A stretch of 59,069 bases of DNA, filler included, from Dugesia japonica (Eukaryota), in NCBI GenBank assembly GCA_001938525.1. It is 5 parts of 5 records of this genome, joined end to end, with 100 filler letters (N's around TTAATTAATTAA, not from the genome) between each part and the next. Parts side by side here need not be neighbours in the genome. Positions count along the whole stretch, not along the records: positions 1 to 16,522 come from MQRL01607237.1; 4 more parts are not named here. One strand, given 5' to 3'. The first letter of the stretch is position 1, and every line of letters begins with the position of its first letter. A program made the translations under genes and the position numbers. Shown in pieces: positions 1 to 29,525 of the stretch. Below the pieces are notes generated by a model. The model had not been told where the DNA came from and made no database searches. It worked only from the letters and a program-made list of their open reading frames with translations.

Positions 1-642
1 CTAAAATTTAAAGATTTTTAAATAAGATATAAATTAAATGTATGAAATATGTTTATTTTAGTGTTTTGAAATTAGATATTAATAAATTTAAAAATGAAAA
101 TGTATTTTGAATAGAATAAAATATAAAATAAATGAATGAAAAATGTTTATTTTAGCTAGATATTAACAAAATTTAAAAACCAAAATATATTTNNNNNNNN
201 NNNNNNNNNNNNNNNNNNNNNNNNNATATGTTTATATATAATTATATGTTTAAATATAATGTGTTTATCAAAAAAATCATGTGAGTCAGTGCGGACCTAT
301 CAAAGAAAAGGAGATGGGGACCTAAAAGCATGTGAGGCAATATGGACCTATCTACTTACTATCGCTCACTTAGTTCGCTGGAAAAAGGCCATCTATTGTC
401 CTTATCTCGTATTTATATAACAATTTGTATTTGTATAAATAATTATTTATTTTAAAAAGTAATTATTTTAACAAATCAAAAAATGATATAAAAAATTAAA
501 GATACAAGTTTGTTTTTTAAAATTTTTTAATATAAATTCAATAAATAATTTGTAGATGATTTTATATATAATTTTTTAATAGTATTTAAATATGATATTA
601 TAAGTAATGCATCTTTGAAAAAAGAAAAAAAGAAAAATATAT

Positions 643-810
643 TGTTGGGGTCCCACCTGAGTTGATGGTGCACATAGACGCTGGCCGGGGAAAAACGGCT
701 CTCAGGGGTACCCTTTCAAGAATTTAAATCTAATTAGATATTCAGTGTGGAGCGGTTGACCTGCAACCTTTACGGGAGGTTCGCACTCACACACCTTTGG
801 TTTGAGTACA
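643..810. ncRNA. Conserved multi-stem structured element, copy 1
   Basis: CCTGAG(656-661)/CTCAGG(701-706), GGCCG(683-687)/CGGCT(696-700), ATCTA/TAGAT, GTGT-GAG...ACCT/AGGT...CTC-ACAC. Homologous stems covary in the other three copies. Strand unresolved. Confidence 0.65.
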
Positions 811-881
811 TTTTTTCCCTATTATTTTAATTATTCAATGAATAAACGACAATACTAATAATAGACTGTATTGATTTTAAA

Positions 882-1243
882 TTACATTTCCTCTAGAGTA
901 CCCGGGTCTCACCACTGGGTAGGCTCTTCTGGAAAAAAATTGAACACCACCGTGTCGTCGTTATCGTCCTATTGTAGGCATGTCACGTTGCCTAGCTGAA
1001 GAGATAGATCTGCAATGTATCTTTTGAAAAAATTGGTTTTGTTTTGGAGTAGCTGTTTCGTTTGCTCGGTTAGGTCGCTTTGTTTCTTTATAATTGTGTC
1101 TAACTTCTTTATCAATGTATTGCGTTGTGACAGATGTCTCAACAGAGAACGCTCCGTTTGACGTTCGTGGTGTCGTTCTAAAAGAAGTCGTCTGATTATT
1201 CGATGGCATCGCCTTAAACTGTTGGGGAATCTAATTCGTGACA
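882..1243 (-). pseudogene. ORF B copy 1: basic N-terminus, coiled coil, acidic C-terminus; two premature stops
   Basis: (M)SRIRFPNSLRRCHRIIRRLLLERH... continues in frame past TAG 969-971 as DDNDDTVVFNFFPEEPTQW*DPGTLEEM*, matching the tails of copies 2-4. Starts at the tttag|TG acceptor. Confidence 0.75.
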
Positions 1244-1355
1244 CTAAATAAGATGCATGATTAGGTANNNNNNNNNNNNNNNNNNNNNNNNNNNNNNNNN
1301 NNNNNNNNNNNNNNNNNNNNAATGTAATAAGAGAAGAAAAACGTTTATTTATAAT

Positions 1356-1675
1356 TTACAAGGTAACAAATCCTAAGGCCTTGATGCCTGAGTCGTTTTG
1401 TCGACCATTTTCTCGGTCTTGGTAGGACCGGATGATCTCGGTAAAAGAGTCTATTTGGGCCTTCCATACCCTCTCCTGTGTATGGGAGGTTTTGGCCTCT
1501 TTCTTAAATGCCATGCCTTTATTCTTATAACGCTTAACCTTGGCCTCGGCTGACGTAGTGGTGGCCTCCCATCGTCGTTTTGCGAGCTTATATAAGTCCC
1601 ATGTGATCTCCATCTCCTCACTTGACTCCTTCAGTTTTTTGGTGGGAACTATGGCACGATTCAACGAGGAATGCA
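1356..1675 (-). CDS. ORF A copy 1: ~106-aa predicted coiled-coil protein of unknown function
   Basis: (M)HSSLNRAIVPTKKLKESSEEMEITWDLYKLAKRRWE..., homologous to 11366-11724 and 15101-15339. Homology starts exactly at taaag|TG; AATAAA at 1344-1349 (minus). Confidence 0.7.
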
Positions 1676-1827
1676 CTTTAAAATAAACAACCAACATTAA
1701 GATAATTAAATCGTAGCAGAGGATAATAGTAACCGAAACAATAACACTCAACTATATTTGTGTTACGAACTTGTTAACTAAGTTATCATAAGAAATGGAG
1801 AGATGTAAGCCATATAAATTTCATTCT

Positions 1828-2278
1828 ACAACAACAAAAACAAAGGGATGAACTTAAGGAGCTCAAACTCCGCGTGTGTCAAAATTATTATCATTTTCTG
1901 AAACCCCAATGCGGCCTGATTCTGTAATTCCCATAAAGTGTTATTCATAGAATCAGCCAACCTGGTGAAAGGTGGTAGATGTGCAGCTGACACGGGTATG
2001 ATGGATGGACCGTCCTGCCAAACACTGGTGACCTGTTGGGTTTCAGTATTTATGATTGTAGTGCGATGAAGTACTTCTCGGGTACGATCTGGACCGCTCC
2101 GTTGGTGATAAGCCTCACGCTAGGTTGTTGCCCATTTCCTCTCATTATCAGCGTCCTCCCTAGTTAAATTTGTATAATCTGTGAGGACCCCTGCATTTTG
2201 ATCATAGGTATTCCAGTACCTACGAAAAATCACTCTACCAGTGCGGCGATCGTATAGGGTTTCCCAGACGAATTCCAT
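1828..2278 (-). pseudogene. ORF C: ~150-codon GC-richer frame with one internal TAG, unknown product
   Basis: Manual translation MEFVWETLYDRRTGRVIFRRYWNTYDQNAGVLTDYTNLTREDADNERKWATT*REAYHQRSGPDRT... preceded by an atttag acceptor-like site. Absent from the ORF track. Confidence 0.5.
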
Positions 2279-3953
2279 TTTTCTCTAAATAAATTTACAA
2301 ATAATTATATAACACAGAAATTACTTTGATAAAAATGAAATTTAATATCGAGAAATGTATCAATTAAATTAAGCAACTTTTTTTATTATTACAATAAATT
2401 AAAACACTGTAGTTAATTTTGAGTCTATATTACCAACATGATTTTAATTAAGTTAATTTCGAAATTATTAATCCTTATTCTTCGGCGTCTAAATCAACTG
2501 GACTAATGAGCAATTTATAGAAATAAAATCACACTGGCAAATTAACCCATATCTATTTGACAATAATATAACGATAATCGAAATCATAAGCATAATTTTG
2601 TAAAATTCAAGGATTTATTAAACATAACCAATCAGGTAATATTAATAGTTGAAATCATAACGTCGTCGCCTCATAGGGGTAATTACAAATATTCCTTCCG
2701 GTGATGCAGCAAAGGTATCGAATATTAACTAATAAGTCAGCATACTAGAATAAAATCCGACGACACACACGTTGATAATGTTATTGACTTCTGTTCTCAT
2801 CTGGAAAAGGCAACAATAATCATTCTCCCGACTTATTGAAGGTGGCCGATCTAACACCGAACGAGGTTCACGAAACGATGAGTTGGATAGCATCTTGAAA
2901 TTGCGCTCAGGAAGAGGCGATATGGGGTTGAAACCTCCCAGAAAGGTGATCATAAACATAAAAAGAATTTCTCCTCTGTAATTCAACAGGGTACCATTCA
3001 CTTTCATTATAATTCCATTTCTCCGAGTAAATTCCCATCAACAATGTTAAATCAAGGCAAAAAAGAGATAGCAACCGCTGCGATATTCATTAATAATTCT
3101 ACTGCCGATGAAAATATAGTACACACAACATGGAACTGTGTTACTGACACACTAACTCTGATGTGACTCATACCATTTATGCATACTAATTTGCTAGTTC
3201 TCGATTCCTAATTTTGTTATTTATCACTGAATCATAAATAAATTTCGTCGGAATTAATTGACATATTACAGAGCTATAGGTTAGACATGGTGAGAGTTAA
3301 TATTATTGGCACATTCTATCCGTGGTGGCCTGAGCTAAACATAGCATCAAGTAGAGAAAATCCATTTTTCGAAAAAATTAATTGGTTGTATGTTAAAACT
3401 GATGCAACATTCATACTTGATTCATGATTAGTTTACCAGCCCTTTTTCGCATTAAATAATCTAAATTTAAATATAGTTGAAACTGAAAATGATAATTTTT
3501 TTAGTAAACATTTAATTGTTACATAACAACTATGTAATTAAGCAGTAGCGATCTACATTTAACAGACAACATTGATATAAATATAGAAAATACCTACTGA
3601 GTAATTCGAAATTTTTTCTGCAACGGGTTTAATTTCCACAACCAAGCTAAATATCAGTTCTGGTTTACTGTAGATGGCGTACACACAATTTTCTCCGTCT
3701 ATTCTGTATTTCGAGATAATAACGTTATAATTAATCGTTTTTTGTTTTTAAAAATTCAACGCACTTACGAGTTATCAGGTGGTGAATGGTGATTAAATTT
3801 TTTCTTCTAATTTCTTCATGAACAGAGGTTAGCTTAAAATCGTATTGGTGAATTGCCTAAATGTTACAATAATAACTGTTAAATTTCGTAACGAAATTGC
3901 TCTCTTAGCCAAGACAATTATTTTTGCTGATTTTTCTTCTAAATTTCTGGGGG

Positions 3954-4083
3954 CTTAAATAGCTTTCTGGATGCAACCCGGCATCATCGCTATTGGCTGT
4001 CTAATTTTAATTCAAATTTCTTTTATTCTATTGGTGTAGACCTGGATTTCTAAGAATTTTTCACCATTTTCTGATACCATTGG
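3954..4083 (-). promoter_or_regulatory. CCAAT x3 + TATA-like promoter, copy 1
   Basis: Minus-strand CCAAT at 4079-4083, 4030-4034 and 3992-3996, then TATTTAA at ~3955-3961. Same layout as 13155-13346. Confidence 0.55.
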
Positions 4084-4368
4084 CGTCTATTTTTAAACCC
4101 ACATTTGATGTTTGGGTCTTTGTTTTATTTTTATTTCTTGGGTTGTTATTGCCCCATTCTTCCAATCCTTGTGGTAGTCCCTCTGATGGTAATAACGTTT
4201 TCCAATTGTGAAATCCCATTGACCAGATAACACTTTTCAGTTTTTCTTACTTTTCTACTTTTTTGATATAAAATATAGATTAACATTTTTTAATTAATTA
4301 AAAATAAAATATTTTATACGCTACAATTTATTCTCAAATAATAAATAAAAATTTTTACTATTTATTAT

Positions 4369-6607
4369 TGTAAGTAGCATTATTTTAGGAATTTTAAATA
4401 ATATTTCTGAAAATATTTTATTCCTATAAATTAATTACTGAGGAATTTTTACTACTTATTAATGTAAGTAGATTCTTTAGGAATGTTAAATTATATTTTT
4501 TTTAAAAATTATAAAGTGAATATATAAAATGAGGACATGAGAAAGTGAGGATTAGAAAAGGTCACAAAAGTACAAAATTTGGTAAACTGAGATAGTGAAA
4601 TAAACTGAAATTTACTGAAATTATTTATAAATAAAATTTCTATTGTGATGCTTTGGGGATTGTTGCCAAAGCAAATCAGCAATTGCGTGAGTATGAAATA
4701 ATTTAATATATTATACAATTCAATAACTTGTATATTATCATTATATGGAAATCTTATGTCTTAATATCGTTATTATATAATCAATATTAATATAAATAAG
4801 CTATATAGTCGGCTATTTAAATTAAATAATAATTACTTTGAAAAATTTATATTAAAATAAATGATTTGTAACAATCGTGTTAAGCGTTTTTATTTTATTA
4901 CTCTGAGCTGCAGTCCAAGTAGGCTTTAGCTTTTATTAAGTAATCTTAAAAATAGGGTGAAAATAATGAAAATTCGGTCTCTATTTATACTAGAGACCGT
5001 TAATAAATCATGTATAAATAAAATAAATAAATACGGAATTATAAAAATTTTCCATGCAAATATAAAAATTTTCATAAATAAATAAAACTATACTTATATA
5101 AAAATAAAATCTAAAATCCAGTAATAAGGATTTAATTGTTTATAATAAAATTTTTAATAGAGATTCCAAATCAATACATTGAATATAATAACAAGGATTT
5201 GTTTGTTTATAATAATTTTTATTAGAGATTCCAAATCAATAAATTGAATCTAATAACAAGGGTTGGATTGTTTTTAATAAATGGAGATTCAATTTAAAAA
5301 TAAAAATTTGAATTATAATGATATAAGAATTTGCACATTCAGAACAAACAACAGAAGTCTGTAACACACAGAAGTCGCAAAATTAAATCACAAAAATAAG
5401 TCTACTTAAAGTTGTGAAATCAGTGAAATAAATAAAGTTCGAATAATTGCGCTGGTCTTTGTTGTTTAGTGGACTGATTGATTGATTAATGCTCTGATGG
5501 TATGAGCTGATTGACTTGGAGTTGTTGCTCAGAAGACTGACNNNNNNNNNNNNNNNNNNNNNNNNNNNNNNNNNNNNNNNNNNNNNNNNNNTTTGTAACA
5601 ATCGTGTTAAGCGTTTTTATTTTATTACTCTGAGCTGCAGTCCAAGTAGGCTTTAGCTTTTATTAAGTAATCTTAAAAATAGGGTGAAAATAATGAAAAT
5701 TCGGTCTCTATTTATACTAGAGACCGTTAATAAATCATGTATAAATAAAATAAATAAATACGGAATTATAAAAATTTTCCATGCAAATATAAAAATTTTC
5801 ATAAATAAATAAAACTATACTTATATAAAAATAAAATCTAAAATCCAGTAATAAGGATTTAATTGTTTATAATAAAATTTTTAATAGAGATTCCAAATCA
5901 ATACATTGAATATAATAACAAGGATTTGTTTGTTTATAATAATTTTTATTAGAGATTCCAAATCAATAAATTGAATTTAATAACAAGTGTTGGATTGTTT
6001 TTAATAAATGGAGATTCAATTTAAAAATAAAAATTTGAATTATAATGATATAACAATTTGCACATTCAGAACAAACAACAGAAGTCGCAAAATTAAATCA
6101 CAAAAATAAGTCTACTTAAAGTTTTGAAATCAGTGAAATAAATAAAGTTCGAATAATTGCGCTGGTCTTTGTTGTTGAGTGGACTGATTGATTGATTAAT
6201 GCTCTGATGGTATGAGCTGATTGACTTGGAGTTGTTGCTCAGAAGACTGACTGTCAAGAATAATTCATAGTATTCAAACAAATAATCTGATAAATTTTTC
6301 AATAAAATNATAAATATTCTACTTTACATAAAAACTTTAAAATTATTTTNAAAAATATCAACTTTTTAATTTAATGAAATATCTCATTTTACATAAAAAT
6401 TTTATAAGATATTTTACCTAATAATTTCATTAAATAAATTAAAAATATTTAATTTTACATAAAAATTTCACAAAATATTTTAACTAATAATTTCATTAGA
6501 TAAATCAAAAATATCGATTTGATTTTGTGGAATATTTTATTTTATAAAATTATATAAAAATTAAAGAAAGATTTCCCAGAAATTTAAATCTATAAATAAT
6601 TCTTACA
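4369..6607 (-). mobile_element. 3' LTR of a Gypsy element (contains a ~0.7 kb duplication across a gap)
   Basis: Minus-strand PPT AAAGAACGGGGA (6608-6619) is followed by TGTAAG at 6607. Matching inverted TGTAAG at 4369 (alternative 4463). Confidence 0.6.
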
Positions 6608-7400
6608 TCCCCGTTCTTTAAAATATTTTTCAATCTTTTTCACATTTCTTTCAATCATTTCTTTCTTTGTCTTTTGATCTGTTTTCTACCTTGATTACCA
6701 TATCGCCTCCAACTTGAAAATGTCTCTTTGTTGGTGTCAACTCTCCGGATTCTTCATTCTTTTCTCCATTATTGAACTATCTTTCTCTATGTATTTTCTT
6801 ACCGAATATCACTTCTGCTAGACTTATCCCCAAAGTCTTCTGGCTTGTTACATTTAGTCTATATTCAATTTCTGGTAATAACTTTTCCCAATTTTTATTC
6901 TTTTTATCTTTGTAATCTCTGATCGTTCTGAATGGTCTCTCTACTATTCCATTTGTATTATGATGATATGGACTTGAAAAGCAAATTGTTATATTCATTG
7001 AATCTGTCATCTTTTTGAAGGCTTTCGATTCGAAGGTCTTCTCACAATCTACATGTATCTCTTTTGGGGCACAAAATCTCAGTATCCATTTATCTTTAAT
7101 CGTTTTGTTTATTGATTCCTCATCTTGTTTAACTAGGGCTGTTAATCATTTGTATCTGCTAAGTTTATCTATTATGACACATATATATCTTTTTCTTCCT
7201 GTGGTTTCTTGGAATGGCTCACAGATATCAATATAAATACTTTCAGATGGTTCATTATCCTTTAATTTTATAGTTTCCTCCTTTGTTCTAACTGTTGTTA
7301 CTTTGTTCATTTGGCACACTGTATATTCTTTAATTACACAGTTTCTCTCAAATCTTCCATATCATATTCATTTTTTAAATAATTTATCACTTTTTCCGTG
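6608..7400 (-). mobile_element. Ty3/Gypsy integrase remnant + PPT
   Basis: FSSPYHHNTNGIVERPFRTIRD...WEKLLPEIEYRLN..LGISLAEVIFGK rve core; frameshifted. Confidence 0.9.
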
Positions 7401-7982
7401 CCTGCGTGCATCAATAANNNNNNNNNNNNNNNNNNNNNNNNNNNNNNNNNNNNNNNNNNNNNNNNNNNNNNNNNNNNNNNNNNNNNNNNNNNNNNNNNNN
7501 NNNNNNNNNNNNNNNNNNNNNNNNNNNNNNNNNNNNNNNNNNNNNNNNNNNNNNNNNNNNNNNNNNNNNNNNNNNNNNNNNNNNNNNNNNNNNNNNNNNN
7601 NNNNNNNNNNNNNNNNNNNNNNNNNNNNTATGCAACGAATTCATATAGTTTAGGAATGGGTCATTGATTTATTGATTTATTTAGTTATTTCGCTTTAAAT
7701 ATTTTTCTTCGAATTATTTTTTAAATAATATTTTTCACAATATTATCATATCCAATACATGATTGACATTTAAATGTTTTATTGAAATGAACTTCATTCA
7801 TTTGTGGAGATGTTGATTTTAATCTGTCATAACAAACTTAAACAATGTCCTCTTCATGAACATTTCAACATTTGTAACAGTTCTGCTTCTATCTGTTTAT
7901 TGAATTATACTCTTGTTAACATTGCTTTCAAACTAACATTGATTCGTTGTGTCTCGAATTTTAGAATTATTATAATTAATGT

Positions 7983-8737
7983 TGTTGGGATGAAACACCT
8001 GCTACAGAGAATAAAAATGGCGGTAGGTAAAGCTGAAAGTGAAAAGATAGTCACCAAATGAGGAAACCAAGAATTTAGACAAAGGAAAGTCACAGTTGAA
8101 AGAAGGAAATAATTAAAGGAAAAACGAAGAGTGGCAGTTAAAACCAACGTAAAAACCAACAAAATCTAACGTTACAGCAATAAAAAACTCAGAAATAAGA
8201 AAGCCAAAAAGAAGAAAAGAAGTAACAGAAGCTATCAGTTAGATAAAGAAAATAATGATTAACAATTAGTTCATTAGACAAAACTAAGAAAATCATATTG
8301 AACGAATAATGGGAGAAAGAGAAAATAAATTAAAGGAATTAATTAAATTAATTAATGAAAGAAAAACGACAAAATTAAATTATATTTAGATCAGAAAAAC
8401 AAAGAAATGAACATGTAATTAATAATTAAGAAGAAAATAAAATAAATAATCTAATTATTTAAATAAAATAAATCGTACAAATTAAAATGATTTATTTTTT
8501 AAAGAAAACTAAATATTTTATGAAAATATGGCAAAAACGACGTCTTCCCACGGTGACAAAATTAGCAATTAAGAAGATTCTGGACAATAAAAAATTTGAG
8601 ACTTCGAAAATCTACGTTAAAAAGTCATAGTAAAACTAGGAAAGAAGATACAAGGGTTTGAAAATTGACCTATGGTTTCGTAATCCAAAAATATCAACCA
8701 ATAAGAAGGACTCATGTGACGATCAAGCCAATAGAAG
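7983..8737 (+). mobile_element. TGTTGGG-element promoter-side fragment (inverted relative to copies 1-4)
   Basis: TGTTGGGATGAAACACC at 7983 matches the reverse complement of the copy-2 right end (13808-13825). CCAAT boxes at ~8698 and ~8728, then interrupted by the next copy. Confidence 0.55.
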
Positions 8738-9800
8738 TGTTGGGGTGAAACGCCCGTTAAAAAGGAGAAATAAAGCCAAAAAGAACCCAAATCAACAAAA
8801 GAACGGCAGGACCATTATAGCTACCGATAATGAAATGCAGAAAATAAAGCGTGAAATAACCATTGGAAAAAGAACAAAATAAACTTGGAGATGGATACGA
8901 AGGACCGGATAACTTAAAATTAACACACATCAGTATTGAGAATTAAAAGAATTATCCAATTCATAATAAAAATCAAGAAAATCATTATGGGAGAATAATG
9001 TATTTTAAAAAAAAATTTAATTTATTTTGAAATAAAAAGAAGTAAAATTAGCCAAAAATTCGTTTTACCCGAATAACTTCGCTCAAGGAAATCGGAAAAA
9101 ATCAGGGTAAGAAAATACAGAAGGAAAATATCAAGATGCATTGAAATTACCAAGAAGAAAAAACTTACCACCATCCAGAAGGTTGCTGCAGGGTCTTCAA
9201 GATCGGGCCAATAAGAGATCTAGAAATATAATTAAAACAAAGACACAATTGTCATGTGTCACTCTAAAAATAACTGCCAATTGCAGTTCCAAAAATCTAA
9301 AAATATTTTAGAGAATNNNNNNNNNNNNNNNNNNNNNNNNNNNNNNNNNNNNNNNNNNNNNNNNNNNNNNNNNNNNNNNNNNNNNNNNNNNNNNNNNTGC
9401 GATATAAGGAATCATGAGATTAACAGAAAAAACAACAAAAAATAAAATTTTACCGAGTTTTTCAAGATACATTGTTGATATTCAAAAGGAGAACGCCAGC
9501 AGAATTTCTTTCGCAAAACAAATAAATATTAAAAATCGCGGTCATCAGTTATCGCGCATCGGAAGAAAAAACAGAAAGCATAATTATCGTGACCAACTAC
9601 CCCGGAAAATAATTCATTTGTCTCGTGTGGTTATCAACTGTTGCAGAAATTCCTATCAAAAAGAAATATTTTATAGTAAGTGTTGTCATGTAATTTTAAT
9701 TTAATATAACTTAAAGTTGAATGTGATTGCAATTTTATATTTTAAATTAATATTTTAATATACAGTGATATTCCATAACATCTAAAACGTTTATTTTTTT
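8738..9800 (+). mobile_element. TGTTGGGG-element promoter-side fragment (inverted), nested in the previous one
   Basis: TGTTGGGGTGAAACGCCC at 8738. 9208-9316 aligns with the reverse complement of ~13240-13350. Leader motif TGTTGCAGAAA then A|GTAAGT at 9675/9676. Right end approximate. Confidence 0.7.
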
Positions 9801-10567
9801 TGTGTTTTGTTTTCAAACTTGTAGTCAAACAAATGTAATTAAATAATATGATCTTGATTATACGGCCTACAAGCCAAAAGATCCGATAAATCTAAGTCGA
9901 CTATACATAAGTCATTTTTTGCTTCCAAGAGCACACACGTCATCGATAAATCGATAATGAAGTCATAGTGATAAGCGATTTATATCACCATAATTAGAAT
10001 CGATGAGCCAGTTGGTCGAATAAGATAGTTAATCATACACACCTACTAGTAGGTAAACCTCAGTGTATGTTGCTAGTTGCGGAATTGTTTACTGCTTCTA
10101 GGCAACTTCATTCGTTCATGGTTTAAAAGTTTATAATTTGCTTAAATTGATAACATTTATTTTATCAAATAAATACAAGGTCTTCTATTTACTCAGTTTT
10201 GGTAATGTTGGTCAATTATTTACTTATTATGAATAAACTTGGTTAATTATTTGCTCACAAGGGTAATTTTTAGGTGAATTCGGTCAATTATGCCCTCTGG
10301 AATGAACAGTTTGAATGATTTCGTCAATCATTTTCTTGGGATTGTTTAATTTGTGTGATTTTTGAGTTATTTCGTCAATTATTTCCTCGTCCTGGTCAGT
10401 TTGGGTAATTTTTAGATGATTTAGTTAATTATTTCTTAAATATGGATAAACTTAGTCAATTATTTACTCATAGTGTTAGGTGAATTTGAGTGATAATTTC
10501 TTCGGGTTTGTGGGTTAGAGCTGAATTTTAAGAAAATTCATGATAAAAGTCGAGTTTGTTTAAATTT

Positions 10568-10740
10568 TGTTGGGGTCCCCCCTGAGTTGAGTGAAAATAA
10601 CGCGGCTGGGGAAAACAGCCCTCAGGGGAACCCTTTCAAGAATTTACCCTACCGTCCCTGGGGTAGGTTTTCAGTTTATGGCGGTTGACCTTACTCTTAA
10701 TGGAAGGTACACACCAATAAACCTTTGTATTCGGGTTCAA
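10568..10740. ncRNA. Conserved multi-stem structured element, copy 2
   Basis: CCTGAG/CTCAGG, GGCTG/CAGCC, CCTACC/GGTAGG, GTTTAT/ATAAAC, ACCTT/AAGGT. Conserved GAGTTG, CAAGAATTTA, GTTGAC, GGGTTCAA. Confidence 0.65.
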
Positions 10741-10817
10741 TGATTTTTCCTTTATTGTTACTATTGAAAGGAAGAAATTACAATTTTGGATACAGACATT
10801 TTATTTTATAAAAATAT

Positions 10818-11237
10818 TTAAAGTAAATCCAGCGCCCCTGTATCTAGCCATTGGTTTGTTTCCGTTACCACGAAGTTGAAAGCTGCGATGTCGTCTTCGT
10901 CATCCCATTGTGTTACAGATGAGTTGCCTATTCGATGGGACAGATCGGCAATATATTGTTTTAAGAACTCTATTTTCCGCATCAACAGCTGTTTGGTTTC
11001 GGTTTACAAAGCTTTAGTTTTAACCGCCAGATCGTTTTGCTTTTTTATAATTAAATCTAATTTTTTAATCAGCTGATCCCNNNNNNNNNNNNNNNNNNNN
11101 NNNNNNNNNNNNNNNNNNNNNNNNNNNNNNTCAGCTGATCCCGTTGGTCTAGGTGTTTCATAAGTGCCCTATCTGTCTTACGCTTTAGGTGTCGTTCAAC
11201 CAGTAAGCGGCGCATAATTCTATGACACCTTCGGATA
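10818..11237 (-). pseudogene. ORF B copy 2 (gapped, frameshifted)
   Basis: IRRCHRIMRRLLVERHLKRKTDRALMKHLDQR... and tail WDDEDDIAAFNF...QWLDTGALDLL*. AATAAA follows at ~10800. Confidence 0.75.
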
Positions 11238-11365
11238 NNNNNNNNNNNNNNNNNNNNNNNNNNNNNNNNAAAAAAAATATAATTAAACTGATGAAAACTC
11301 AAGTTCATAATTAGAAAAGACAATTAAACAGTTTATTAAACTCAAATAATTAGTAAACATGACAC

Positions 11366-11724
11366 TTAGGAATGGTTGGCCTGAGTGCCCTTATCTATGA
11401 AGAGAAGGGCCAAAGGTGTCGCTGCTCTCAACTTCAATATATTTTCCATCAAACTATTCTCCCGCTCCTCATAAGAATGGACCATCTTGGTAAACGTCTC
11501 AACCTGGGACTTCCACACCCTCTCTTGCTTCTGGGTGGCGTCCGCTTCGGCTTTAAATGTTAAACATTTCCGCTTGTAGCGTTTTACTTTAGCGTCGGGC
11601 GCGGCGATCTCTGCTTCCCATCGCCTTTTGGCTAATCTATAGAGATCCCATGTGAGATCGAGATCTTCACTTGTCTCACGTAACTTTTTTGTCGGTGCCT
11701 GGGATCTATTCAACTACGAATGCA
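11366..11724 (-). pseudogene. ORF A copy 2 (TAG at codon 4)
   Basis: tttcag|TG CAT TCG TAG TTG AAT AGA..., then TKKLRETSEDLDLTWDLYRLAKRRWE. AATAAA at 11332-11337. Confidence 0.75.
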
Positions 11725-13154
11725 CTGAAAGATAAACCCTAGTGGTAATAACAACCATTATTTATTAATAAAAATATTATTCATAATCATAGGACTTATA
11801 ATGAAAAAAAAAATAATAATAATGATAATTGGTGATAATAATAATACTAAAATGTTTGAATACAGTGCCCGTAATGGCAAAATTATTATCCATGCTTATA
11901 ATGATCATTTGGTGGTAAGACTACCGCTAGTTTCAACCACACGGATATCACTAATGATGAGAATAGCCTTGATCAGATTTTGAATCTCAAAAGTCAAATA
12001 TAATGATGAAATATAGACTAGTGGGGATCCCTATTTATTAATACCAAACGGTGTACATAATCATTAGTGTATGAACGTAGAAACTCTTTTTAATTCCGAA
12101 TGATATTTTTAACAATAATCTACCCGAAGGTCATGTTTTAAATAGTCGTGCTGAGAGGTTGCTTAGTAACACCAGTTACTACCAGTGGTCACATTGCACA
12201 CTAGTTTTAACCAGTTGTAGGTGTGTCTAATCGTTATGTCAATACGAGGGTTAAATATGCAACATGACTCATTTACTGGTGCCTAATTCTATCAGTGAAT
12301 ATTATAGCGACAATTCTGCATTTCTAAACATTACAGATGTACTCCCTGATCAAAAAAGAAATCCCATCATCTATTCATCTTGCTATTGCATGGAGTTAAT
12401 GGAATTATCATTATTGGATTTTATCTATTTCGCTGGAAATTCCCTCACCGATTTAAGTTAATATAGTAATTATATGATTGTTTGTTTTTTATAAAATAAA
12501 TAGTTGTTATCACTGTATTTTATCTTTACTATAATATATTGTAAGGTATTGGTTTTCGTGCTCGAGAGTCACCCACAATAAAAAATGAAATGATGCAAAT
12601 TTACCACGGATTTCCCCCTCTAATAACGGACTGTATTTGGTTATGTAATTCGAATCTCGTTAGGTCACACAAACGTGTGTGATGCAATTCATCAACTGTA
12701 ATAAGTGTGTAGTGGACTATTTAATATTTATCAAATAAAATTCATAGTAAGAGGTAGATATATTTAGTTTCAATTTATTACAACCATTATAATACGTTAT
12801 ACATAAAAAAATTATTTCTCAACATAAGGAATAAAATTTTACTTTTTGAATTGAATTACAGAGTTTCTGCAACAGGGTCGTAGTTAGTATGACTGATTAG
12901 AGCGGTTCCTTTCGATAATTATTTTTTTCTTCCTTGTCTGGAAATCGTTGTCTATCTTTCTGATCCTTGATTTATAGTTAGACGTGATTCAATTAAATAG
13001 TATTTACTGTAAGGTTTTCTCGTAAAATTGGATAATTCTTGTTTTTAGTTGTTTGTTGAATTTCTTGAAGCACACAGTTTTTAGTTAATACTTGCGTCTT
13101 ATTGACTTGAATTAGATTGAATTAATGTCTGATCTTTTGCTAAACCGGGGGTCC

Positions 13155-13346
13155 TTTTATAGGATTTTCTGATACACCCCGGCACCTTTCTCATTGGTAG
13201 GTATTTTTGTTTTAGAATTTTATTGGTGTTAGTGCTGATATTCCAGAATTTTCTTAGATTTTTGGAGTCCTGATTGGCAGGTATTTTTAGAGGGCTATGT
13301 GATGGTTCCTTCTTTGTTTTATTTTTATTTTTAGGTATCTGATTGG
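13155..13346 (-). promoter_or_regulatory. CCAAT x4 + TATAAAA promoter, copy 2
   Basis: Minus-strand CCAAT at 13342, 13273, 13222 and 13193; TATAAAA at 13155-13161. Confidence 0.6.
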
Positions 13347-14541
13347 TTCGATCTTGGAAACCCTACAGTACCTTTCCGAATGATGGTAANNNNNNNNNNN
13401 NNNNNNNNNNNNNNNNNNNNNNNNNNNNNNNNNNNNNNNNNNNNNNNNNNNNNNNNNNNNNNNNNNNNNNNNNNNNNNNNNNNNNNNNNNNNNNNNNNNN
13501 NNNNNNNNNNNNNNNNNNNNNNNNNNNNNNNNNNNNNNNNNNNNNNNNNNNNNNNNNNNNNNNNNNNNNNNNNNNNNNNNNNNNNNNNNNNNNNNNNNNN
13601 NNNNNNNNNNNNNNNNNNNNNNNNNNNNNNNNNNNNNNNNNNNNNNNNNNNNNNNNNNNNNNNNNNNNNNNNNNNNNNNNNNNNNNNNNNNNNNNNNNNN
13701 NNNNNNNNNNNNNNNNNNNNNNNNNNGCTTTCCTGGACATTTATGTAGTTCACTACCTTTCTTTATCTTGTATTTGATGACCACCGTGGTTTTAGTCTTC
13801 TTCATCTGGGTGTTTCACCCCAACAATTTTCAAATTTTTAAAAAAATTTTATGGAATCCGGATGAGCAGTTTATGTTGTTTAAATAATGTGGAAATTTTT
13901 AAATTTTTTAAATGAAGTTTTTATGGGAATCCGGAATCTCCGAAATTTCGAAAGTTTTTGTTAAGATTTTTTCACCAATCGATGCAGAATTCGATAGAGA
14001 TTATTTTTCACAAATAAAGACTTTTCGAAAAAATTATTTATCATCTTTTCATGACATGATCATGTGAATTAAATAGAGAAATTTTCGCTGATTCTAAATA
14101 TATATACCTAAAATCGCCAAAGTTTAACTTTATAAAATATTTTAATTTTTAATTAGAGTGTTAACTTGGATTAAAAATTTTTCATTATAATTTCTTAATG
14201 TGTTGAAAATTTATAATAGTATTGATGAAATTTGAAATAATATTTGAATAATATTGATAGAATTAAATTAAGTATGATGGATTTTTAATATTTTTCAAAT
14301 AATTATCACCTGAGTTGGGTGCGGAGAAAAATGGCTGGGGGAAAAAGACAGCTCTCAGTGGACTCGTTCAAGAATTTAGCTAATGCCCCTTGCTTGGTCT
14401 TAAATTTGAACCAGTTGACTCCCAACGCTTATTTAGAGTACTCGCTTACATCTTTTTATCCGGGTTCAAGATTTCCCCTAATTTTAATTTATAAAAAAAC
14501 TGTAACAACAAAATTACAAGAAGAGTTTATTTGTCACCAAT

Positions 14542-14875
14542 TTACAAGTAATTTAGAGCACTCGGGTCTAACCACTGGGTAGGCTCACTATTTGTGAAAC
14601 CGAAGGTGGCCTCATTATTGTCGAGATTCCAGCGAACCCAGGTTTTCTGTTCCAGCCAGTTTGATAGGTTGGCGATGTACTGCTGCAAGAATTCAATTGT
14701 ATGGATGAGAATTTGTTTTTTGACGATAAGATCTAATTTTTTTATTAAACGATTCCTCTGAGTAAGATGGCGCAAAAGAGCTTTTTCATTCTGACATTTA
14801 ATATGCCGTTCTAGTAAAAGTTTTGTATGGGGCGATGGCACAGATGAAGACTGTTGGACAACCTTATTCGTGGCA
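14542..14875 (-). pseudogene. ORF B copy 3
   Basis: tttatag|TG CCA CGA ATA AGG = (M)PRIRLSNSLHLCHR, then a 1-nt frameshift, KLLLERHIKCQNEKALLRHLTQRN...EPTQWLDPSALNYL*. AATAAA at 14526-14531. Confidence 0.75.
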
Positions 14876-14970
14876 CTATAAAATAAATAGATCATAATCA
14901 CTTTTAAAACAAAATATTTAGAATCAAACACAAAGAAAATACAACAGAAAAACATTTATTTATAACTGTT

Positions 14971-15339
14971 TTAACTAAGAACCCGGCTTCTATGAACTAC
15001 GAGTTCGTGTAGCCTTATCAATCATTAACGGCTCCAGTCGAATACTTTTCCTTAACTCAAGCATGTCGGTTACCAGTTTATTCTCCAGGTCATGGAGGGA
15101 CTAGATGATATCAGCAAAAGATTGTTTCCAGGCACATTCCTGAGCAACGGAGGCCTCTGCTTCTTCTTGATAACTGCGACATTCATTCTGATACCACTTT
15201 ACCTTGGGATTTGCTGCAGCTATTTCGGTTTCCCATTTTCGCTTCGCTAATTTATATAGATCCCAGGAAATTTCTATGTTCTCACTGTCTTCTCGAATCT
15301 TTTTCGTGGACGTCACCGCTCGATTCAGGGGTGAATGCA
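14971..15339 (-). pseudogene. ORF A copy 3
   Basis: attcag|TG CAT TCA CCC = (M)HSPLNRAVTSTKKIREDSENIEISWDLYKLAKRKWE. Premature stop at 15101; AATAAA at 14955-14960. Confidence 0.75.
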
Positions 15340-15807
15340 CTGAATAATTTGATGTTATATTAAATCAATGGCTAATGCGACGAGACAGAAAAGGAAACAC
15401 TGTTTTTTCTCAAAGATACTACGTTATTTAAATATTTAAAAAGTTATAAGAATATCACAGCAAAATCATTACTATCAATATTACTTATGCATGTGGTTAC
15501 AAATAAAATAAAATGCTTAAAACAGGTAGAATAAATTTCTTTAAAGGGTATAAGCTAAGGCGTTTATAAAAAAGTAAAACAAAAGGTAAACACAGAATCC
15601 ATACTCGGTATTGGTTGTGGGTGCTGCATTCTTAGCATCTTCATTGGAAGTCGGGTTCCTGATGCTCCATAGTAAGTTTGTGATAAACGCACATACCGTC
15701 GGGGCTGGGGCAGGTGTTCTTTAGGTAAACTGGATTACGAGACTCTGGGGACCATTACAATTTTGGTAGTGCTGGTAGTGCCATAATTATAGTGATAACA
15801 ACAGTAT

Positions 15808-16522
15808 TGTTGGGATCCTACCTGAGTTGTGGTAAAAAAATTATGGCTGGGGGAAAAAATCAGCCCTCAAGGGATCCCTTACAAGAATTTACCTTATGTC
15901 TTTTATAAGGTCTTCGATGTGAAGTAGTTGACTTCCAGCACTTATTTGGAGTACGTACTTACACATCTTTTTTATTTGGGTTCAACATTTCCGAGTTACT
16001 TGAATATAAATATAAAAGCAAGCTCAACAACAAAATTTCGAGAATCATTTATTTAAGTTTAATCACATAGCTAATGCTCCAGGGTCCAACCCCTGGGTGG
16101 GCTCGTCATTCTCAAAATTGAAGGTGGCCTCATCGTCATCGCTATTCCACTTAGTCCATAAACTTAATTCTAGACGGGTGGACAAATCAGCGATGTATCG
16201 ATTCAGAAAATTAATCTTATTTTTCAACATTTGTTGGGTATATTTGGCTAGTTCTCCTTGTTTTTTATGATGATATCCAGCTTCTTAATTAGGCGGTTGC
16301 GTTGGATAAAGTGCCGTAAAAGAGCACGTTCATTTTGTCGCTTTATGTGCCTCTCTAAAAGGAGTTTTTGGATAAGTCGGTGACACCGACGGAGGCTAGT
16401 TGTAGTTGAATTCTAGGTACTACAATTAAAAATATGAGGAATCTTGACAACCAGATGAAACAAATAAGATATCAAATTGATACTAATAAGATGTATTTAA
16501 AATTAAACAATTGAAATTCTAA
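15808..16522 (-). mobile_element. TGTTGGG-element copy 4 (structured end + ORF B, cut by gap)
   Basis: TGTTGGGATCCT at 15808; structured element to 15985. ORF B remnant ~16063-16419 (SLRRCHRLIQKLLLERHIKRQNERALLRHF...WNSDDDEATFNFENDEPTQGLDPGALAM*). Acceptor is ttgtag|TA. Confidence 0.8.
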
Positions 16523-16566
16523 NNNNNNNNNNNNNNNNNNNNNNNNNNNNNNNNNNNNNNNNNNNN

Positions 16567-16578
16567 TTAATTAATTAA
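16567..16578. other. Assembly linker TTAATTAATTAA (also 27617-27628, 39914-39925, 48425-48436)
   Basis: Identical 12-mer with stops in all six frames, embedded in N runs four times. Confidence 0.9.
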
Positions 16579-16622
16579 NNNNNNNNNNNNNNNNNNNNNN
16601 NNNNNNNNNNNNNNNNNNNNNN

Positions 16623-17000
16623 AAATGCGACATTAAAAGACATATAGAGTAAAGATTGGACTGAATTACTGCCAGAAATAGAATTTGGATTAAATTCAAC
16701 GTGGCAAAAGTCTAAAAATACCAGTCTAGCGGAATTTATCTTTGGAAAGAAATAGCAAGTGAATACTGGAACCAACAGGTAACAGAGAAGACGGCACCAA
16801 TGACGACAACCAAAAAGACATTTGAAGATATAGAGGAAGTGCTAGTAATAAATGAAAACAGGAACAAAGATCAGGAACGTTTAGAGAAGCCTTACCAGAA
16901 AGTAAAAAAAGTCCACGACCAAAGATACTTATTGCAGAGAGATGACGGGAGAGGAATAAAGATAAATGTGGAAAAGTTAAAGAATTTTTTTGGGGGGGAT
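16623..17000 (+). mobile_element. Gypsy integrase C-terminal remnant with G-rich PPT
   Basis: DWTELLPEIEFGLNSTWQKS...SLAEFIFGK, and ...KINVEKLKNF followed by GGGGGGGA at 16992-16999. Same family as 6608-7400. Confidence 0.8.
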
Positions 17001-17229
17001 ATGAGATGTTATTTAAAATTGAAAATCGAAATTAATGTTTAATATGTTTGTTTTAATATTCTGATTTTCAGTTTAGTAAAATATTTTTAATTAATAAATT
17101 GTTGATGAATTTGAATTTTTAATAAGGTTAACAATTATTATTAACATAAGTAAAAGAAATGCGTATACAGTGAGGTTTGCATATTACAATTCATCTAATC
17201 GCAATATTCATTTTATAGCAAATTTTTAC

Positions 17230-26334: not shown

Positions 26335-27480
26335 TGTCTTTTGACAGTCACCATTTGACATTCACATTTCATTGACGACAATTCTTGTAATACATTAACC
26401 CCGTTCATGATCATTCATGCAATGAGATTTATATGTTATTGCATATTCATGTCAGTATTCATACTTTTGAGATAATACTGCTCCAACGGTATCAAAACTT
26501 GCATCGATGTAGAGTATAAATTCTTTTCAGAAATCTGGTAATGTCAATATTGGAAAGCTTATTAATGCTAATTTCATTTCTTCACAAAAATCATACTATA
26601 TCGATTTTGAATTATTTTTCTCACACAGAGTTTCTAATATTTTTAATTTCTTTGGATAATCTCTAATAAACTTCCGATAATATTTAAATATGCCTGAGAA
26701 ACTTTTCAAGCTTTTTACACATTTTGATTTTCAAAATGACTGGATAATTTAAATTTTAATCAGATCGGTTTGAATACCTTTGTCGTTTATAATATGATCT
26801 AAAAACTTGACTTCTTTTTTCAACGGTTCGCATTTTTCTGGATTAATCCTTAATCCTGCGTCTTTAATTGTGTTCAAGACCTTTTTCAATAGAATATAGT
26901 GTGTTTCCATTGAATCGATAAAAATCAAAATGTCATCTAAATATCCCATTACTCCATCCTTCCACATCTCTTTTAATATCTTATTCATCAATTCTTGGAA
27001 TGTTCCAGGAGCTGTCGCAATGCAAAATGTCATTCTATTAAAACAAAATTGACCCTCACTTGTGGAAAAAGCTGTTTTTTCCTTGCGATTCCTTATCAAG
27101 CCTTGATTAGTAATAAGCGTTGGCTAGATCTATAGAGCTAAATTATTTAGCACTATTTAATGTATCCAAAATATTTTCGACGTTTGGCATAAGGAAGGCT
27201 TGTCTTTCCGTAATTTGATTCAATTGTTTAAAATATAGACACCATCTGATATCTTTCCTTTCTTTTTCCAATACACAAAGGTGTATTCCAAGGTGAATTG
27301 CATCTCTTGATTATATCATTTTCCTCTAAATTTTTAATAGCATCATTTATTTTTATTCTGTATAATCTCGCTATGCCACTGCTAAAAATGGCTTTCTTTT
27401 TTTAGAATAAAATAAAAACTTGGACTTACTTCTGAATTAATCGATGTTTGCTCATTTTGTCGTTTGAGAACATTTAGCTC
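26335..27480 (-). mobile_element. Gypsy RT/RNase H remnant
   Basis: KTAFSTSEGQFCFNRM...APGTFQELMN...YLDDILIF; FILYIDASFDTVGAVL; frameshifted. Confidence 0.9.
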
Positions 27481-27672: not shown

Positions 27673-29525
27673 GTAATGAAAATCAAATTATCAAAGAAAT
27701 GAAAAATTTTAAATCAATTATCATTACACCAACAGATAAAACCAATAAATTGGTAGCTCTATCTGAACAAACATACAATGAATTTTTTACTGAACATTTA
27801 AATAATTACGAAACAATAACCCACAAAAGACTACCAACTACAGAAGAAATTAAACTCAATAAAAAATTAATTCAAATAGCAAAAAAATATGAAGACCCAA
27901 AAATATCTTTACTTTTAACAGTCAAATATCATGAGCCAGTTCTATCCTTGATGTACTGTGTTCCTAAAGATCACAAAACAACAATGAAAGGAAGACTTAT
28001 TGTTAACGCTTCTGACACTCCTCCTACTAAATTATGCAAACTTATGGCAGATATATTAAAATCACTATTAAGTTTCATTTTGGCACATTTAAAGAATAGT
28101 TATGAGTTTATCGAATTAAATTAAAAATTATAACTGGAAGAGTAATGATGAATTTTGTTCATTAGATTTAACAAATCTATATGGATCAATTCCAATTGAA
28201 TGACCTGAAAATATGATTGATATTATAAGTGACTTCTTTGAAAAATACAAAGAACATACAAATATTCCAGAGATCACCAAAAATGATTTCAAATGTCTTT
28301 TCAATTTGTGTCTCTTTTCTGATAGCAATTTCATCGGCAAACAACTTTTTAAACAGAAAGGTGGTCTTGCTATGGGTAATAATTTATCTCCAATTCTAGC
28401 GATAATTTTCATGAACTTCATTGAAAATCAAATANNNNNNNNNNNNNNNNNNNNNNNNNNNNNNNNNNNNNNNNNNNNNNNNNNCATCTATGGTTTAGAT
28501 ACATAGATGATATTTTCTTTGTAACTAATTCTCCTTTAGAGAACATTTTAGAATTAGTTAACAGTATTAATAATAACATTAAATTCCCTTTGGAGAAATC
28601 AACTGGCTTTCAGATTCCTTTTGTGGACACTTTAATGCAAAAAAAACCTTGTGAAACATTAACCACCAAATTATATATGAAACCATTATACAGTGGACAT
28701 ATACTACCATCAGCCAGAAAATAGGTATAATTAAAGGGGAAAGAATTCGAGCTGAGAGACTATCTTCAAATAAAAAAATGAAATTGATTTCTCTCAAGTT
28801 GATTAAAAACAAATTCTTAAATAACGCCTACCCAAATAAAATTATATCAAAATATTTATCTTTGAATACAAAGCATAATAATATCAAACCAAAAACAAAC
28901 ACAGTTATTAAGTTACCTTTTATTGATGAAAAATGTAGCCAAATTATGCAAAAAATAATAAATTCTAAATTCAAATTCTAGCATCTTTAGGCATCTAATT
29001 ACAGAAACCAAGACAAAACGTTTGTNNNNNNNNNNNNNNNNNNNNNNNNNNNNNNNNNNNNNNNNNNNNNNNNNNNNNNNNNNNNNNNNNNNNNNNNNNN
29101 NNNNNNNNNNNNNNNNNNNNNNNNNNNNNNNNNNNNNNNNNNNNNNNNNNNNNNNNNNNNNNNNNNNNNNNNNNNNNNNNNNNNNNNNNNNNNNNNNNNN
29201 NNNNNNNNNNNNNNNNNNNNNNNNNNNNNNNNNNNNNNNNGAAAACACTAAGAACAAGCTACATTTCTACACTACATAGAAAAAACATGAATTACTAATT
29301 AAAGAAGACAATCCTAAAATCAATGTAATTAATAATAATTAAATTAAAAAAAGGTAAAATTAACCAATTAAAATTTAATAAAAATAAATTAATTCAAAAA
29401 AAATTTCTATTGTAAAAATAAATATTGAATGAATTGAAAATTCAATTCCTGAAGAAGACAAAGTCGAAATATAGAATTATTATCAAAAACCAAAAAAACA
29501 AATTTTGATCGAAGCTTTTATTTTA
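27673..29525 (+). mobile_element. Penelope-like retroelement (RT, thumb, GIY-YIG tail), degenerate
   Basis: IITPTDKTNKLV; PKDHK..GRLIV; SLDLTNLYGSIP; QKGGLAMGNNLSPILA; RYIDDIF; hammerhead at the 3' end. Confidence 0.9.
29444..29478 (+). ncRNA. Minimal type I hammerhead ribozyme in Penelope pLTR
   Basis: AATTC-CTGAAGA-A-GAC-AAA-GTC-GAAA-TATA-GAATT: stem I AATTC/GAATT, stem II GAC/GTC, palindromic ATAT stem III. Confidence 0.75.

Follow-up and report, generated by a model that had tools for sequence, protein, structure and literature searches.

An element bounded by positions 10568 and 13825 of a 59,069-nucleotide stretch of Dugesia japonica DNA (five joined records, filler included; hereafter the window) is most readily explained as a solo LTR that has decayed. 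It would read on the minus strand and derive from an abundant clade of Gypsy-type LTR retrotransposons, a reading to which we give a probability of about one half. The element is real and has integrase-type ends with a 4-bp duplication, two selected genes, a conserved CCAAT/TATA promoter, and a covarying terminus (table 1). Its size and abundance make a giant parent of the Burro type plausible. LTR end-pieces do not usually have such a layout, and the copy under study (the focus copy) is itself dead and broken.

Table 1. Features of the focus element and related pieces, in window coordinates.
Feature	Position	Strand	Basis or remark
Left target-site duplication copy	10564..10567	.	Flank match and empty-site joint
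9-bp terminal inverted repeat, structured end (att-like)	10568..10576	.	Related ends at 643, 15808
Terminal helix P3 and inner hairpin	10572..10633	-	Conserved; z -3.65 minus, -3.63 plus
Invariant unpaired 9-mer AAAUUCUUG	10637..10645	-	4/4 copies; within 10608-10646 core
Family-variable hairpin P2	10648..10667	-	Stable in 2/4 copies; weak in 643, 14307
Long helix P1 with invariant CA bulge	10673..10723	-	8/17 pairs changed on both sides
AATAAA 3′ of ORF B, then U/GU-rich sequence	10800..10805	-	3/4 copies
ORF B exon: basic stretch, long helix/coiled coil, acidic-aromatic tail	10818..11237	-	One in-frame stop
AATAAA 3′ of ORF A	11332..11337	-	3/3 copies
ORF A exon from acceptor AG/TG; two helices	11366..11724	-	In-frame stop 11714-11716
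Family-specific middle (intron; possibly decayed further cassettes)	11725..13006	-	Contig depth 97-306
Predicted non-coding leader, final A at donor GTAAAT (13007)	13007..13131	-	Start inferred ∼30 nt after TATA
Promoter: TATAAA and four CCAAT boxes	13156..13346	-	Motif scan, copy alignment
U3-like upstream region: 337-N gap and promoter-side 9-bp inverted repeat	13347..13825	-	Copy comparison
Right target-site duplication copy	13826..13829	.	Flank match and empty-site joint
Diverged copy: structure, ORF B with 2 stops, open ORF A, promoter	643..4230	-	
Promoter-side piece of related element, interrupted by 8738 piece	7983..8737	+	Sequence comparison
Promoter-side piece: terminus, CCAAT array, TATA-like box, leader, donor 9676 (final A)	8738..9700	+	
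Diverged copy: structure, frameshifted ORF B with deletion, ORF A with 1 stop, some of middle	14307..15807	-	
Diverged copy nested in 14307 copy: only structure and ORF B (frameshift)	15808..16522	-	

The ends are those of an integrase-type mobile unit, as the preliminary description proposed, and are LTR-like and asymmetric. The termini, TGTTGGGGT at 10568 and ACCCCAACA at 13825, give TG..CA ends within an exact inverted repeat of 9 bp, beyond which 6 of 31 positions match; each of the two unlike end types is found again in other copies. This combination of TG..CA, a short inverted repeat, and otherwise unlike ends is that of Ty3/Gypsy solo LTRs, whose target duplications are 4–6 bp. Here, the repeat of ATTT on both flanks is a 4-bp target-site duplication, expected by chance at ∼1% (4% if the frequency of ATTT in the flanks is considered) and observed for one insertion. 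The flanks themselves are a separate high-copy repeat. Position 10568 is joined to 13847 in contigs of both DNA runs (X2, n = 2; X1, n = 1) and in one RNA read (X19). The X2 join holds 16 other letters, with ATTT once, so the empty site matches the length of window positions 13830–13846 (17 nt). This empty site, which supports the duplication, is paralogous, and only 8 of the 16 letters agree in a by-eye count. Three N gaps, of 50, 32, and 337 bases, lie within the element. A 12-bp overlap, and a contig joint of 11068 to 11131 found in each of the two DNA runs, make the gap at 11081–11130 probably false; the true length would then be ∼3.2 kb rather than the 3.3 kb first assigned, and the boundaries stand.

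Other copies in the window share parts with the focus element. The 643 copy has the same order of parts, with a different middle that carries two candidate ORFs, and is missing the promoter-side terminus; the 14307 copy is without ∼12 terminal bases and the promoter. An earlier claim that one architecture recurs at 643, 14307, and 15808, with promoter-side pieces at 7983 and 8738, holds for homologous parts and not for the full architecture: the copies are partial and their middles non-homologous. Copy-to-copy comparison found no homology across the 1.3 kb of the middle, and no additional conserved ORFs were found in that region. In the window, none of three intact structured ends is followed by a PBS and none of three promoter ends is preceded by a clear PPT; no paired copies or linked gag-pol were seen in the window. 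Absence of PBS and PPT is expected for solo LTRs, yet lends the LTR reading no positive support.

In this lineage, ORF A and ORF B are genuine genes, and purifying selection acts on them. In nine of nine copy pairs, pS (0.79–1.0, saturated) exceeds pN (0.22–0.39); the order is reversed in none of 2,000 bootstraps, and three shifted-frame controls have no such excess. The preliminary description had made its case dependent on these ORFs not evolving neutrally, and they do not; its order of ORF A and AATAAA followed by ORF B and AATAAA on the minus strand is likewise confirmed. Divergence is considerable: ORF A of the focus copy is 54% identical to that of the 643 copy and 43% to that of the 14307 copy, and the ORF B block is 45–56% identical to those of three other copies. 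What does not survive is the claim that the solo copy remains a complete expression module. In the focus copy, the stop in ORF A is three codons past the acceptor, ORF B has a stop at 11004–11006, and the ORF B acceptor is hidden within the N gap 11238–11269. RNA depth over the ORFs is 0–2.6, or almost no reads, in two oligo-dT RNA runs, and none of the joints listed (15 of 133) is a splice joint with RNA support. A non-standard genetic code was rejected as the source of the stops, which are TAA, TAG, and TGA at differing places in different copies.

No homologues of either protein were found in any library searched. For ORF A, this covers near-length proteins (0 of 8 candidates), longer proteins (0 of 4,822), a profile against 1.84 billion representatives (0 at E ≤ 0.001), pattern hits in metagenome contigs (0 of 121) and viral contigs (0 of 159), and PDB sequences (best E 0.095); for ORF B, a protein search (0 of 261 candidates), viral contigs (0 of 485), and PDB sequences (0). 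Pfam returned only sub-threshold coiled-coil matches, and no bZIP or other family scored above cut-off in any of four ORF B members, whose layout is bZIP-like only. AlphaFold models, built from three to four sequences each, are bare helices with pTM of ∼0.4 and are uninformative, as is the lack of Foldseek matches to viral structures at E ≤ 0.001 that they yielded. ORF B is modeled as one helix (residues 10–88) and a low-confidence tail, which has 4–9 acidic and 0–1 basic among 29 residues. Top ESM Atlas scores of 0.90 came with low recognition and were discarded as noise.

Motif order from Pol II promoter to poly(A) signal is conserved. On the minus strand of the focus copy, CCAAT boxes are at 13346, 13277, 13226, and 13197, followed by TATAAA at 13161, the donor at 13007, and AATAAA at 11337 and 10805; the CCAAT array is alignable across three copies, and the promoter and donor first proposed are thus all located. 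No RNA start or end sites were found at the element in the two oligo-dT RNA runs. Splicing of one common leader probably makes the ATG of either gene, an arrangement that is new here, because AG/TG (the slash marks the junction) is in frame at five of six visible acceptors (ORF A, 3/3; ORF B, 2/3) and the final base of the donor is A in two of three copies. Exceptions are the AG/TA acceptor at 15808 and the 643 donor, which ends in C. The background frequency of AG/TG is 5% of all AG in the window, and the ORF A and ORF B acceptors amount to only about two independent observations.

Comparison of copies indicates that the structure at the terminus, first described as ∼170 nt, is conserved and covaries over ∼190 nt. 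The alignment folds with a z of −6.7 on the minus strand and −4.3 on the plus strand (controls, +0.3 and −2.8), and it has eight pairs changed on both sides, a count reached by none of 500 shuffles. Folded alone, the focus terminus is no stabler than shuffles (z of −0.78), so the evidence for structure is comparative. In the RNAalifold pairing, none of the pairs in P3 is changed on both sides. Another variant of P2 is present in RNA reads of a related family, and loose read ends occur at 10646 (33 and 5 reads). Inspection of the alignment by eye suggests an alternative 5′ pairing as well as a candidate 4-bp pseudoknot. Rfam 15 covariance models run over 400–17200 gave one match at E ≤ 1, to a snoRNA model on flank sequence (E of 0.48), and matched the structure to no known RNA family (ribozyme, IRES, packaging signal). 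Matches to a covariance model of the structure in the window are its four training copies only, the terminal pattern has no hits in viral contigs, and the window has no tRNA gene. A DNA pattern scanned against metagenomes matched 66 loci, and in none of these did blastn or tblastn detect similarity; two look-alikes (L002 and L029) are an unrelated palindromic repeat.

As a minus-strand Gypsy LTR, the element would have a U3 of ∼690 bp, from 13825 to ∼13131. Its promoter would produce a short non-coding leader that is spliced to terminal exon A or B as alternatives, each with its own poly(A) signal, and the last A of the leader and the first TG of the exon would form the start codon. The genes would lie downstream of the start site within an R of ∼2.3 kb, and the structure past the last poly(A) signal, in U5, where it may be a Gag-binding, packaging, or priming element adjoining the PBS. 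Being 3′ of the last poly(A) signal, the structure would be confined to genomic RNA that reads through from the 5′ LTR; transcription across two internal poly(A) signals in an R of 2.3 kb would require a read-through mechanism. Most speculatively, ORF B could be a dimeric transcriptional trans-activator of the element, because of its basic stretch, coiled coil, and acidic-aromatic tail, and ORF A a coiled-coil regulator, functions suggested by composition; LTR–LTR recombination would have left a solo copy that then decayed. A broader proposal is possible, though on balance doubtful: an animal Gypsy clade moved an alternative-splicing unit into a ∼2.3-kb R, with leader A starting several terminal exons that have their own poly(A) signals (for the two conserved genes plus extras that differ by family), read-through genomic RNA marked by a new structured RNA in U5, and fresh solo LTRs acting as free-standing trans-activator gene cassettes. 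ORF A, ORF B, and the RNA would then be three undescribed families.

Protein coding within LTRs is known from MMTV sag in U3 and from HIV nef and foamy-virus bel, which overlap U3. Those are single ORFs in U3, whereas here two genes are 3′ of the LTR TATA, where they would serve as alternative terminal exons, each with a poly(A) signal of its own. The ATG of Drosophila gypsy env is made by splicing (PMC2585583; bioRxiv 2023.08.03.551782), and in gypsy and springer the available text of these sources likewise describes a start codon assembled over a splice junction from a non-coding leader. In those elements, the codon is split AT/G and env is between pol and the 3′ LTR, whereas the predicted split here is A/TG and one leader would serve two exons, all inside the terminal unit. 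Extra ORFs of plant and rotifer LTR retrotransposons are also conserved, have no assigned function, include some coiled coils, and are proposed accessory regulators; in the portions of PMC7264820 and PMC5408684 available, the internal region contains them, in most cases between pol and the 3′ LTR. The closest likeness is to solo LTRs of Ty3/Gypsy elements and to Burro/GYPSM1 of Dugesiidae, the latter having a polyprotein of ∼5,000 aa. Shared traits are accessory ORFs, a size of several kb, many copies, and TG..CA ends with a short inverted repeat and a short target duplication; the likeness is one of description and not of LTR sequence. Section 7 of PMC6431247 places Burro accessory ORFs in the internal region only. 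It puts the total length of Burro at >30 kb, of which the internal region takes up to 25 kb; LTRs of several kb are implied.

The usual view takes LTRs to be regulatory ends that do not code, and solo LTRs to be relics that are inert or act only as promoters. If the element is an LTR, a whole clade retains within it two genes under selection and a start codon built by splicing, and proteins could be supplied in trans by solo LTRs. Gene finders that require an ATG would miss ORF A and ORF B if splicing makes their start codon, consistent with the lack of matches in the protein collections searched. Two questions become testable: by what means genomic RNA gets past the pair of poly(A) signals in the 5′ LTR, and which partners bind the covarying U5 structure. 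No description of the layout was found in the literature searched (most subscription journals and Repbase Reports were outside its scope), and Repbase or the Burro papers may already include the LTR.

Polarity and the position of the cassette bear on a second reading, an unlikely one, in which the element is a solo LTR with the cassette outside R. Either the LTR is on the plus strand with antisense genes from the far end, or genomic RNA starts from another promoter close to the poly(A) signal of ORF B, which puts the genes, with their own promoter, in U3, as in MMTV sag. Both avoid a 2.3-kb R, and antisense extra ORFs with their own promoters, as well as an antisense promoter in the HTLV 3′ LTR, are described in the available text of PMC7264820. 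P3 with its inner hairpin folds slightly better on the plus strand (−11.7 vs. −8.8 on minus), with G-U pairs there, which counts against treating the minus polarity of the LTR as settled. P1 favors the minus strand (−12.3 vs. −7.7 kcal/mol; z of −8.7 vs. −6.6), with six G-U cells on minus. Moreover, only one conserved CCAAT/TATA promoter is present, and no second conserved promoter is visible after ORF B in the alignment.

The LTR reading also has to be weighed against a complete non-autonomous DNA unit with cargo genes, mobilized by a Gypsy-like integrase or transposase (Ginger-like) and never part of a larger retroelement. TG..CA ends with TGT or TGTNR-like termini and 4-bp duplications are known in Ginger1 and Ginger2 (PMC2836005, in the text available), introns and poly(A) signals are no obstacle for DNA transposition, and PBS, PPT, and an internal region are absent at six family termini in the window. 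The same text gives these transposons a transposase, of which the element has none, and terminal inverted repeats of 40–270 bp (Ginger1) and 50–180 bp (Ginger2) versus 9 bp here, a difference that excludes them and favors the LTR reading. Neither is the target CCGG or CCGT, as for Ginger1; ATTT agrees with the 4-bp duplications of Ginger2 at AT-rich sites, though it is outside the preferred RTATAY. A one-ended, covarying RNA-type structure is better explained via an RNA stage, and a Ginger-like unit is improbable.

Slightly more improbable still is a self-standing retro-unit that is non-autonomous, with interchangeable upstream cargo and a structured 3′ end by which it draws on the machinery of another element; the 3.2-kb form would be one variant of many. 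Contig depth of the 10608–10646 core is ∼40–100× that of the ORFs (∼209,000 in the bin 10508–10715 vs. 1,800–5,100), middles are non-homologous among copies, and a contig joint of 10645 to 10719 represents a shorter variant. Summed short-contig depth is not copy number, however, and many diverged LTR families with a conserved U5 would produce an identical pattern. The poly(A) signals precede the structure, and a promoter upstream of the start site is regenerated only via the LTR mechanism.

An assembly artefact or chance juxtaposition of unrelated fragments over the three N gaps is very improbable, as the empty-site joint agrees with both boundaries, the order of parts is repeated in the 643 copy, and the length of the U3 side is similar across the N gap (436 from terminus to 13389 vs. 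427 in the 8738 copy).

We read the element as an LTR, with a probability of roughly three in four. Its short, asymmetric att-like ends and RNA-type structure fit a solo LTR, as do a promoter ~670 bp inside one end and poly(A) signals ~230 bp inside the other. The 9-bp terminal inverted repeat and flanking ATTT of the preliminary description are confirmed: the repeat is exactly 9 bp, and beyond it 6 of 31 positions match. A 4-bp flank match has a chance of ~1–4%. The flanks are made up of another high-copy repeat, and contigs of both DNA runs (two in X2, one in X1) and one read of RNA run X19 join 10568 to 13847. In X2 the join includes 16 other letters, which makes the empty site 17 nt long, the length of window 13830–13846; a 4-bp duplication predicts 17 nt and its absence 21. 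Empty-site support for the duplication is good, and not exact because the site is paralogous, with 8 of 16 letters agreeing (counted by eye).

An LTR whose genes occupy a long R, with its structure in U5, is slightly better than an even bet. An LTR with its genes in U3 or antisense is a doubtful alternative. Precedents for coding in U3 are MMTV sag, HIV nef and foamy bel. A Ginger-like unit is unlikely, and its TIR lengths, 40–270 bp in Ginger1 and 50–180 bp in Ginger2 in the available text of PMC2836005, contrast with the 9-bp repeat here. A self-standing cargo unit is rated slightly lower again, and an artefact is highly improbable. At element-family termini in the window, neither a PBS (0 of 3) nor a PPT (0 of 3) was found. 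Contigs of both DNA runs share a joint from 11068 to 11131, and the 50-N gap at 11081–11130 is probably false, so the element is ~3.2 kb long. The terminus and 13389, which lie on either side of a 337-N gap, are 436 apart, versus 427 in the 8738 copy.

For Burro elements, multi-kb LTRs and thousands of copies are implied, and the available text mentions only internal accessory ORFs (PMC6431247); the ORFs here lie inside the terminal-to-terminal unit. Extra ORFs of plant and rotifer LTR retrotransposons are likewise described as internal in the text available (PMC7264820, PMC5408684), and the accessible portions of PMC8532177, PMC11410931, PMC6884822, PMC13465017, PMC13238120 and PMC12786077 make no mention of genes inside LTRs. 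What distinguishes the element is a pair of predicted alternative terminal exons lying downstream of its promoter, together with a probable splice-made ATG and a conserved structure at the end.

ORF A shares 54% identity with the 643 copy (101 codons) and 43% with the 14307 copy (108 codons), and blocks of ORF B share 45–56% with three other copies. In 9 of 9 copy pairs, pS (0.79–1.0) exceeds pN (0.22–0.39), an order reversed in 0 of 2000 bootstraps; in three shifted-frame controls, pN equaled or exceeded pS in 1301, 1999 and 1932 of 2000. The ORFs proposed earlier are thus not refuted by the test of neutral evolution; an exact selection ratio is precluded, since tblastx was used to choose the blocks and dS is saturated. 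At least one ORF is broken in every copy in the window. The focus copy has stops in ORF A (11714–11716) and ORF B (11004–11006); at 11006 the window disagrees with every covering contig from both DNA runs, so the ORF B stop belongs to the focus copy alone or to the assembly. Structures predicted from 3–4 sequences consist of long helices, with a low-confidence tail in ORF B. The ORF B protein combines a basic stretch (10 K/R in 35), a heptad signal of moderate strength (0.53–0.54) and a tail with 4–9 acidic and 0–1 basic among 29 residues, a layout from which we would guess a trans-activator. Searches of protein, profile, Pfam, ESM Atlas, metagenome/viral contig, PDB and Foldseek viral collections found no relatives of either ORF.

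The exon of ORF A lacks a conserved ATG, and so does that of ORF B wherever its start is visible. In-frame AG/TG acceptors occur at 11724, 1675 and 15339 for ORF A and at 1243 and 14875 for ORF B; the ORF B acceptor is AG/TA in the 15808 copy and falls in a gap in the focus copy. Across the window, just 5% of AG dinucleotides precede a TG. On the donor side, the last exon base is A at 13007 and 9676 and C at 3768. Retention of a third-position G where synonymous sites are saturated points to a Met codon, and an ATG built by splicing is predicted. Drosophila gypsy env has a splice-made start codon, split AT/G as opposed to the predicted A/TG here (PMC2585583 and bioRxiv 2023.08.03.551782, available text). 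Four CCAAT boxes lie in ~190 nt, a stretch chosen after the fact, versus 0.25 expected, and the array is alignable in three copies. Downstream AATAAA signals accompany ORF A in all three of its copies and ORF B in three of four; the motif is common in the element (nine on its minus strand).

About a quarter of each of two oligo-dT runs, mapped on 6.2 kb, yielded 559 and 73 reads (11 and 0 at ≥95% identity), most taken by the flanking repeat. In this sample, depth across the focus ORFs is 0–2.6 and no transcript start or end sites were found; none of the 15 joints listed, with 118 more existing, is an RNA-supported splice joint. The structured core is covered by related-family reads, and 33 and 5 reads have a loose end at 10646.

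Alone, the focus end folds no better than shuffles (z of −0.78 on minus, −0.62 on plus). Folding the four-copy alignment gives z of −6.7 on minus and −4.3 on plus, with controls at +0.3 (ORF B end) and −2.8 (promoter). Eight of 29 pairs, all in helix P1, are changed on both sides, a count reached in 0 of 500 shuffles by a test inflated through deriving the structure from the same four sequences. An invariant CA bulge interrupts P1, which favors minus; helix P3, conserved with no double changes, has a slight preference for plus. The two helices are separated by a hairpin that varies and by an unpaired 9-mer that is invariant. Rfam has no match for the structure. By eye, alignment A2 of 10568–10755 also hints at two further interactions, each with one apparent double change: a segment upstream of P1 might pair alternatively with the 5′ arm of P3, and a 4-bp pseudoknot might form.

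The recurring architecture holds to the extent that relatives occur at five other positions; each is partial, and no homology between copies was found in their middle regions. Summed contig depth, which is not copy number, is ~209,000 in the structured-end bin, 1,800–5,100 over the ORFs, 1,800–2,700 over leader and promoter and 97–306 in the middle region; single exact pieces reach depths of 5–17. This pattern fits many diverged families with a terminal core in common. A variant contig omits 10646–10718. Metagenome loci L002 (1086–1243) and L029 (2042–2177) were rejected as chance pattern-scan matches (unrelated eukaryote-like repeat, long near-perfect palindrome).

Coordinates of the element, its relatives and other repeats in the window
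Feature	Position	Strand	Remarks
Element	10568–13825	−	ATTT at either flank
39-nt core	10608–10646		depth ~421,000 at 10619, far above remaining element
643 copy	from 643	−	every part but promoter-side end
14307 copy	from 14307	−	structure, ORF B, ORF A
15808 copy	from 15808	−	structure, ORF B; nested within 14307 copy
Promoter-side pieces	from 7983; from 8738	+	
Candidate ORF, 643-copy middle	1829–2278	−	150 codons, one stop, own ATG; family-specific
Candidate ORF, 643-copy middle	2732–3007	−	92 aa, AG/TG at 3000, AATAAA at 2619; family-specific
0.68-kb blocks	4865–5541; 5592–6251		96.8% alike, flanking 50-N gap; a different ~690-bp TG..CA LTR (by eye), probably duplicated by assembly
Integrase-like remnant	~6600–7417	−	adjoins 0.68-kb blocks (by eye)
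Host repeat	10186–10567; 13826–14250		interrupted by element; high contig depth, transcribed relatives; left side of 31-bp tandem units
Pieces related to host repeat	41684–41973; 43164–43436		
Gypsy-like integrase remnant	16623–17042	+	by eye
Related RT fragments	26646–27362; 46294–47006		RVT_1 at 26749–27033
Penelope-like RT fragment	27699–28506	+	by eye
hAT-like transposase ORF	32741–34363	−	by eye
DNA-polymerase-B-like fragment	52273–52809		by eye

No link to an element-family terminus was found for the Gypsy-like integrase remnant or the two related RT fragments, and Pfam gave nothing above cut-off for the hAT-, Penelope- and polymerase-like pieces. The two middle-region candidate ORFs of the 643 copy have no Pfam match, and 16 of 200 shuffles yield an equally long ORF; they could represent additional cassettes that use the same leader. 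Six pieces of the element family lie within the 16 kb from 643 to 16522; two are nested inside a relative, and all four ORF-bearing copies are on the minus strand, an arrangement suggestive of a nested heterochromatic block or of a region resembling a piRNA cluster.
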